A stretch of DNA of 51,501 nucleotides from Heterodontus francisci (lineage: Eukaryota). A program made the translations under genes and the position numbers. This document shows, one piece after another, positions 10,358-10,601 of this stretch. The stretch is taken from contig NC_090416.1 in NCBI RefSeq assembly GCF_036365525.1, forward strand, positions 13,022,822 through 13,074,322, in the 5' to 3' direction. Each line of letters begins with the position of its first letter. Within the stretch, counting starts at the first letter, position 1. The notes beneath the pieces were generated by a model. The model had not been told where the DNA came from, ran no database searches, and saw nothing but the letters and a program-made list of their open reading frames with translations.

Positions 10358-10601
10358 AGAAGTCCTCCCGGCCTCCAGAGGGCGCTGCAGGAGGATAGGA
10401 AGTCCTCCGGGCCTCCAGAGGGCGCAGGTGGAGGGAAGGAAGTCCTCCCGGCCTCCAGAGGGCGCAGGGGAGCAGGAGGAGGGAGGGAAGTCCTCCCGTC
10501 CTCCAGAGGGCGCAGGGGAGCAGCAGGAGGGAAGGAAGTTGCCCGGGCCTCGAGAGGGCGCTGGAGGAGAATAGGAAGTCCTCCTGGCCTCCAGAGGGCG
10601 A
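10358..10601 (+). promoter_or_regulatory. Tandem array of six 40/48-bp units, each with a GGAAGT-type ETS core and a CTCF-like GGCCTCCAGAGGGCGC motif
   Basis: CTCF-like motifs start at 10370, 10410, 10450, 10498, 10546 and 10586. The repeat is certain; function is inferred. Confidence 0.7.

Follow-up and report, generated by a model that had tools for sequence, protein, structure and literature searches.

A minisatellite of six co-oriented CTCF-core motifs at the upstream edge of the MINDY1 promoter in Heterodontus francisci, a candidate clustered CTCF site

The window, a stretch of 51,501 bp from the genome of the shark Heterodontus francisci (NC_090416.1, positions 13,022,822 to 13,074,322), contains two divergent genes with a tandem array of CTCF-like motifs at 10358..10601 (plus strand) between them. 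The downstream gene is MINDY1, whose first coding exon matches the named H. francisci MINDY-1 protein at 100%; its 5' region and first coding exon (ATG 11824) occupy 10984..12405 on the plus strand, within a CpG island. The upstream gene, at 1342..3075 on the minus strand, consists of an ORF (1342-2523) encoding a C2 domain according to Pfam, an acceptor at 2595, a donor at 2934 and a TATA box at about 3068-3075. Homology search returned no name for this gene, which we take to be C2CD4 from its N-terminal signature. A CRE-like word stands just upstream of the TATA box (3068-3087, minus strand), and these labels, which we presume from general knowledge, would fit an inducible promoter. The array is separated from the MINDY1 ATG by 1.2-1.5 kb and from the C2CD4 TATA box by 7.3 kb, and it sits on the CpG-island shore that forms the upstream edge of the MINDY1 promoter; an earlier placement between the two genes stands, but the position is promoter-side of MINDY1 rather than central. 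Elsewhere in the window, a 36-bp duplication at 12401-12479 repeats the first MINDY1 splice donor, and one DNA contig skips 12405-12440, so that one allele seems to be single-copy. An SH3-domain gene ends at 19790-20227 (minus strand) and a PI3/PI4-kinase exon lies within 37000-42200 (plus strand), presumably belonging to a MYO1E-like gene and PI4KB, respectively.

The array is 244 bp long and comprises six head-to-tail units in the same orientation, with core-to-core spacings of 40, 40, 48, 48 and 40 bp, and TRF returns periods of 40 and 48 bp with 71-84% matches. Units of this size fall within the 10-100 bp range of a minisatellite or VNTR. CTCF cores, located with a consensus pattern, lie on the plus strand at 10372..10385, 10412..10425, 10452..10465, 10500..10513, 10548..10561 and 10588..10600 in units 1 to 6; five match strictly, while that of unit 5, the most diverged unit, carries one change. 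GGAAGT hexamers stand 14 bases 5' of cores 2-6, starting at 10398, 10438, 10486, 10534 and 10574 (range 10398..10579), and unit 1 has AGAAGT at the same place. These counts and spacings confirm the six units of the preliminary description, which had also recognized the conserved hexamer-core block, except that what it wrote as N is an 8-bp pyrimidine spacer, giving a conserved block of 28 bp (GGAAGT, spacer and 14-bp core) per unit. The linkers between blocks measure 12 or 20 bp and are 88% purine.

Repeat amplification in place is supported as the origin of the array. A DNA search and a 26-letter pattern found no other copy of the unit in the 6.0-Gb genome, which places the array outside any interspersed or satellite family, and a dispersed-repeat origin was rejected since the unit occurs at this single locus. 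An ancient paralogous element was likewise rejected, as the 20 kb upstream of the MINDY paralogue on contig C38 holds neither a strict core nor an array. Within 6000-12500 there is no Rfam match at gathering score, and the array contains no strict G-quadruplex pattern and one loose match.

The pattern used to locate the cores is the strict CTCF core consensus. It agrees with the consensus in PMC12885311, and with five strict cores and one near core the proposed fit of CC(A/T)CCAG(A/G)GGGCGC to the CTCF core is borne out at the level of the consensus. The window holds six strict cores against 0.37 expected from shuffles; five of the six were copied from one duplicated unit, so they represent two independent events. 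Across 271.5 kb around the array, strict cores amount to three independent events against two control matches. Genome-wide, 25,925 strict cores compare with 3,639 matches to the reversed control, a 7.1-fold enrichment, and the two-part CTCF motif occurs 1,447 times against 0 in the control, much of both being repeat-borne. Interspersed repeat families on contigs C1-C19 appear to carry CTCF cores, one of them together with the upstream motif, and another such family carries the array's exact 14-mer. That 14-mer is found 15 times elsewhere against 2 in controls, but 12 of the 15 copies belong to one interspersed repeat, leaving 3 against 2; because of this confounding the 14-mer gives no independent support and its enrichment was dropped. 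On the side of the protein, the CTCF motif is reported to differ very little between lamprey, chicken and human (PMC5504073), and sharks possess CTCF as well as a testis-biased CTCFL (PMC7471279). In Hox clusters, motif scanning by itself was a poor predictor of CTCF sites (PMC5504073).

Comparison of the six units shows differing letters at 1 of 78 core positions, 1 of 36 in the hexamer and 7 of 48 in the spacer. No other of the 29 13-column windows is as well kept as the core; permutation gives p=0.007 across 41 columns and p=0.025 when restricted to the 28-bp block, in a post hoc test on an array picked for its intact motifs, and 11 of 12 consensus CpGs are kept in the alignment. Within this array the motif columns are thus more conserved than the rest; the suggestion that drifting linkers point to selection is not supported, as the linkers are low-complexity purine runs.

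Expression evidence bears on the position of the array. High-depth contigs reach 10984, 11048 and 11138 in three runs from one sample whose RNA status is guessed, and the array lies 383-626 bp 5' of the furthest of them; the MINDY1 transcript start is approximate, since contigs cannot show the true start. Within this approximation, the array has the proximity to an active promoter that characterizes clustered CTCF sites (2xCTS), and it also has their motif arrangement, namely at least two core motifs within about 30-60 bp. We give roughly even chances to the reading that the array is a clustered promoter-side CTCF/CTCFL site, tandemly amplified at the MINDY1 promoter edge and not an enhancer blocker. 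The observations behind this sequence-based reading are the six co-oriented units, the unique locus, the promoter-edge position, the absence of an upstream motif before the six cores and the best-kept core. The array would have begun as one CTCF core site bordering the MINDY1 CpG-island promoter on its upstream side and grown by tandem duplication, probably through slippage or unequal exchange. The resulting array is predicted to bind CTCF, and possibly CTCFL in testis, with a spacing of 40-48 bp that may let several CTCF molecules sit side by side. Multiple CTCF molecules would raise time-averaged occupancy and hold the promoter edge open, and the array would stall cohesin arriving from the MINDY1 side. 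A candidate convergent partner for such stalling is a relaxed-consensus CTCF core that faces the array from 29 kb downstream (39566..39578, minus strand).

The closest competitor, a possible account that we consider distinctly less probable, is a neutral minisatellite in which ordinary slippage multiplied either a CTCF-like word, weak or arisen by chance, or one useful site, and the extra copies are idle. The window offers a repeat-rich setting for neutral slippage, with 49 TRF rows and several long minisatellites, and comparable arrays occur elsewhere in the genome. Strict-core pairs 25-50 bp apart number 732 against 8 in the control, and the first 100 of the 732 pairs fall into at least 18 unrelated tandem loci on contigs C1-C18, with units of 27-47 bp and from two cores to dozens. 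The 8 control pairs form 2 loci on other contigs, leaving 0 control loci on contigs C1-C18, and this difference of 18 against 0 does not exceed what the 7.1-fold single-site ratio would give (p about 0.09, calculated by hand). On this motif evidence, tandem CTCF-core arrays are a recurring feature of the H. francisci genome. Some of the 18 loci fall within open reading frames and are possibly coding repeats, and a separate CpG-rich stretch is present within 5 kb at 5 of them. Among the 12 of the 18 loci that have at least five alignable units, the core is better kept than the rest in 7 (p=0.19), and comparison with 22 control arrays gives p=0.44. The absence of class-wide constraint in these 12 arrays favors neutrality and weakens motif conservation as a sign of selection. 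At MINDY1 itself, by contrast, the core is the best-kept window, nearly all consensus CpGs are retained, and the promoter-edge position is typical of clustered CTCF sites as described in PMC6945661, all of which argue against idle copies.

An improbable alternative is that the array acts as a boundary, in which its six forward sites and a reverse site separate the C2CD4 and MINDY1 domains and copy number adds strength. The reverse site, missed in the preliminary description, is a single CTCF core at 7319..7349 on the minus strand, with the core at 7319-7331 and an upstream TGCAG 13 bases before it; it points towards C2CD4 and is thereby divergent to the array (10372-10600). This TGCAG may also serve as a weak splice acceptor. 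At the level of motifs, the two sets of sites, 3 kb apart, reproduce the divergent layout of CTCF clusters that is reported to be enriched at TAD boundaries (PMC7422557), and insulation is reported to rise with site number (bioRxiv 10.1101/2020.07.07.192526; PMC11828424). The tandem-insulator tests reported there, however, used 139-bp or kb-size units, not units of 40 bp. The structure of the array units also speaks against a boundary. Enhancer blockers typically have an upstream motif for CTCF fingers 9-11, which PMC12885311 finds required for blocking at IL3. No TGCAG, with up to one change allowed, lies 12-13 bases before any of the six array cores, and, if the shortest reported spacing is assumed, GGAAGT shares only 4 of 6 letters with TGCAGT. 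Direction is a further difficulty: blocking is stronger for enhancers downstream of the core (PMC12885311), so the array's orientation would favor blocking from the MINDY1 side, although the same source notes that orientation mattered less in a Sox2 screen. The earlier proposal that the array shields MINDY1 from C2CD4 is therefore not supported, since every unit lacks the upstream motif and this orientation rule points the other way. It is the reverse site at 7319-7349 rather than the array whose build and direction would better suit protection of MINDY1.

Copy number tuning, also proposed at the outset, finds no backing in a very small sample. A DNA contig that runs through the whole array (depth 2.8) is free of indels and carries two substitutions, both in unit 5. 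In a second sample, none of 15 reads contains a joint, and their one substitution is at 10499; this base, just before the unit 4 core, is T or G among reads, with G in 3 of 5. The unit number is unchanged in the contig and in all 15 reads.

The remaining explanation is very unlikely: an ETS-driven promoter module, or a co-selected ETS and CTCF composite, would activate either MINDY1 or a divergent transcript whose first intron would hold the array. Five of the 6 units retain GGAAGT, with 1 of 36 letters differing, and a further ETS-like word occurs at 10633. Yet a genome-wide search for GGAAGT at the array's spacing from the core, the single spacing tested, found 1 site outside the array against 1 in the control, so the composite does not extend genome-wide. 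Dinucleotide shuffles of the non-core part yield GGAAG in 40% and GGAAGT in 10%, the conservation of the hexamer is not significant (permutation p=0.07), and one contig substitution, at 10537, changes the unit 5 hexamer, though at a depth of 2.8 it may be an error. The flank of the hexamer reads AGGAAGT or GGGAAGT, not GABPA's CCGGAAGT. The paired ETS/GABPA module of the preliminary description is accordingly not sustained; the pairing is probably not meaningful, and the hexamers are likely passengers copied along with the unit. From the model in PMC12885311, the hexamer would sit where CTCF fingers 8-11 pass, which makes competition as plausible as cooperation.

As for the divergent transcript, minus-strand splice-like signals suggest a candidate at 7791-10880, with an ATG at 10808 in good context and a donor at 10794, which would place the array inside its first intron. 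Exon-like stretches lie at 8833-8764 and 7848-7791 on the minus strand, and low-depth contigs cover 10234-10474, 10592-10872 and 10639-10806. The contig at 10592-10872 crosses the candidate donor unspliced, and no spliced contig was seen for the candidate transcript, which counts against a transcript-linked ETS module. A minus-strand protein gene between C2CD4 and MINDY1 was rejected: Pfam recognized 0 of 10 frames, a 43-aa frame had no homologue at longer or similar lengths in a search that recovered its MINDY1 control, and a 39-aa frame had a repetitive protein as its sole match. Overall, the insulator, ETS-pairing and copy-number claims for the array are unsupported so far.

Several known systems resemble the MINDY1 array, and on comparison it is best read as a further case of a kind represented by human CTCF-bound VNTRs. 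In human, CTCF and BORIS jointly occupy 171 mostly simple tandem repeats (PMC5007689), which share with the array a low-copy tandem repeat, a CTCF core per unit and a cluster site; the shark array differs in being known from sequence, with no length variation seen in it. Also in human, two molecules occupy clustered sites that lie 30-58 bp apart; such sites are enriched at active promoters and are bound by BORIS in germ cells (PMC4562119). The array matches such 2xCTS (PMC4562119, PMC10832218) in having at least two motifs 30-60 bp apart near an active promoter, and CTCFL exists in sharks (PMC7471279), whereas its six copies arose by tandem duplication and are known from their motifs. It shares with the DXZ4/Dxz4 macrosatellite a tandem organization whose best-kept part is the CTCF motif; DXZ4, however, has kb-size units and cross-species conservation (PMC3491370), while the array measures 244 bp and comes from one species. 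The enhancer-blocking insulators IL3 and HS4 (PMC12885311) share the core consensus and tandem copies, and differ in the upstream motif, which the array units lack and the single site at 7319-7349 has. Finally, the dynamic CTCF clusters at TAD borders (PMC6945661) are similar in co-orientation, in nearness to a transcription start and in a distance of less than 10 kb to another site, but their sites arise separately and lie up to 10 kb apart, in contrast to copies 40-48 bp apart. If CTCF binds the array, its copies would allow the effect of site number at 40-48 bp spacing on occupancy and cohesin stalling to be studied in a compact, naturally occurring setting. By itself the array adds one promoter-associated CTCF-motif repeat to a kind already described in human; the recurrence of tandem CTCF-core arrays, one family of which is tied to the 3' ends of receptor genes, matters more than the single array.

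This family surfaced in the search for the two-part motif. It is a satellite with a 52-bp unit that holds the upstream motif and the CTCF core at the right spacing, and an exact 25-letter word from it occurs 10,120 times against 0 in the control. Among the first 100 matches to this word, 7 lie on contigs C1-C20 and the rest on C21; the satellite is also present on C49 and on unplaced contigs. Exact units made up 51 of about 379 sampled, which gives a rough estimate of 75,000 units. The motif columns are slightly better kept (8.5% and 7.6% versus 11.3%, p=0.024), and a rare-variant pattern matched one copy. The satellite is absent from the window, and a kinship between it and the MINDY1 array was rejected, their likeness being no greater than chance (108 of 300 shuffles score as high).

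The satellite arrays follow ORFs of rhodopsin-family receptors. This receptor family is very large: a first look returned 10,992 candidates, and all 150 that were scored are at least 91% identical. In 28 of the 30 best loci, the query included, the satellite begins 305-319 bp past the matched coding end, in gene orientation in all of them. The association may be explained by inheritance through duplication among close paralogues. The literature covered, which is incomplete, yielded no report of CTCF satellites in sharks or of this receptor expansion. Two linked ideas, which we hold jointly to be speculative and rather unlikely, would give the association a function and an origin. One is that a divergent CTCF cassette, a single reverse site followed by the satellite, walls off each receptor gene or drives a protocadherin-like choice of a single receptor. 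The other is that in-place minisatellite amplification serves sharks as a route to CTCF clusters beside transposon dispersal, with the MINDY1 array as a selected small case and the receptor-family cassette as the extreme one. If CTCF binds the satellite, it would offer a testable mechanism for the separate regulation of many near-identical receptor genes. A single reverse CTCF-like site, with at most one mismatch, precedes the satellite by about 100 bp in 24 of the 30 best loci. Additionally, words that we presume to be YY1-like and NRF1-like occur at 29 and 27 of the 30 receptor loci, respectively.
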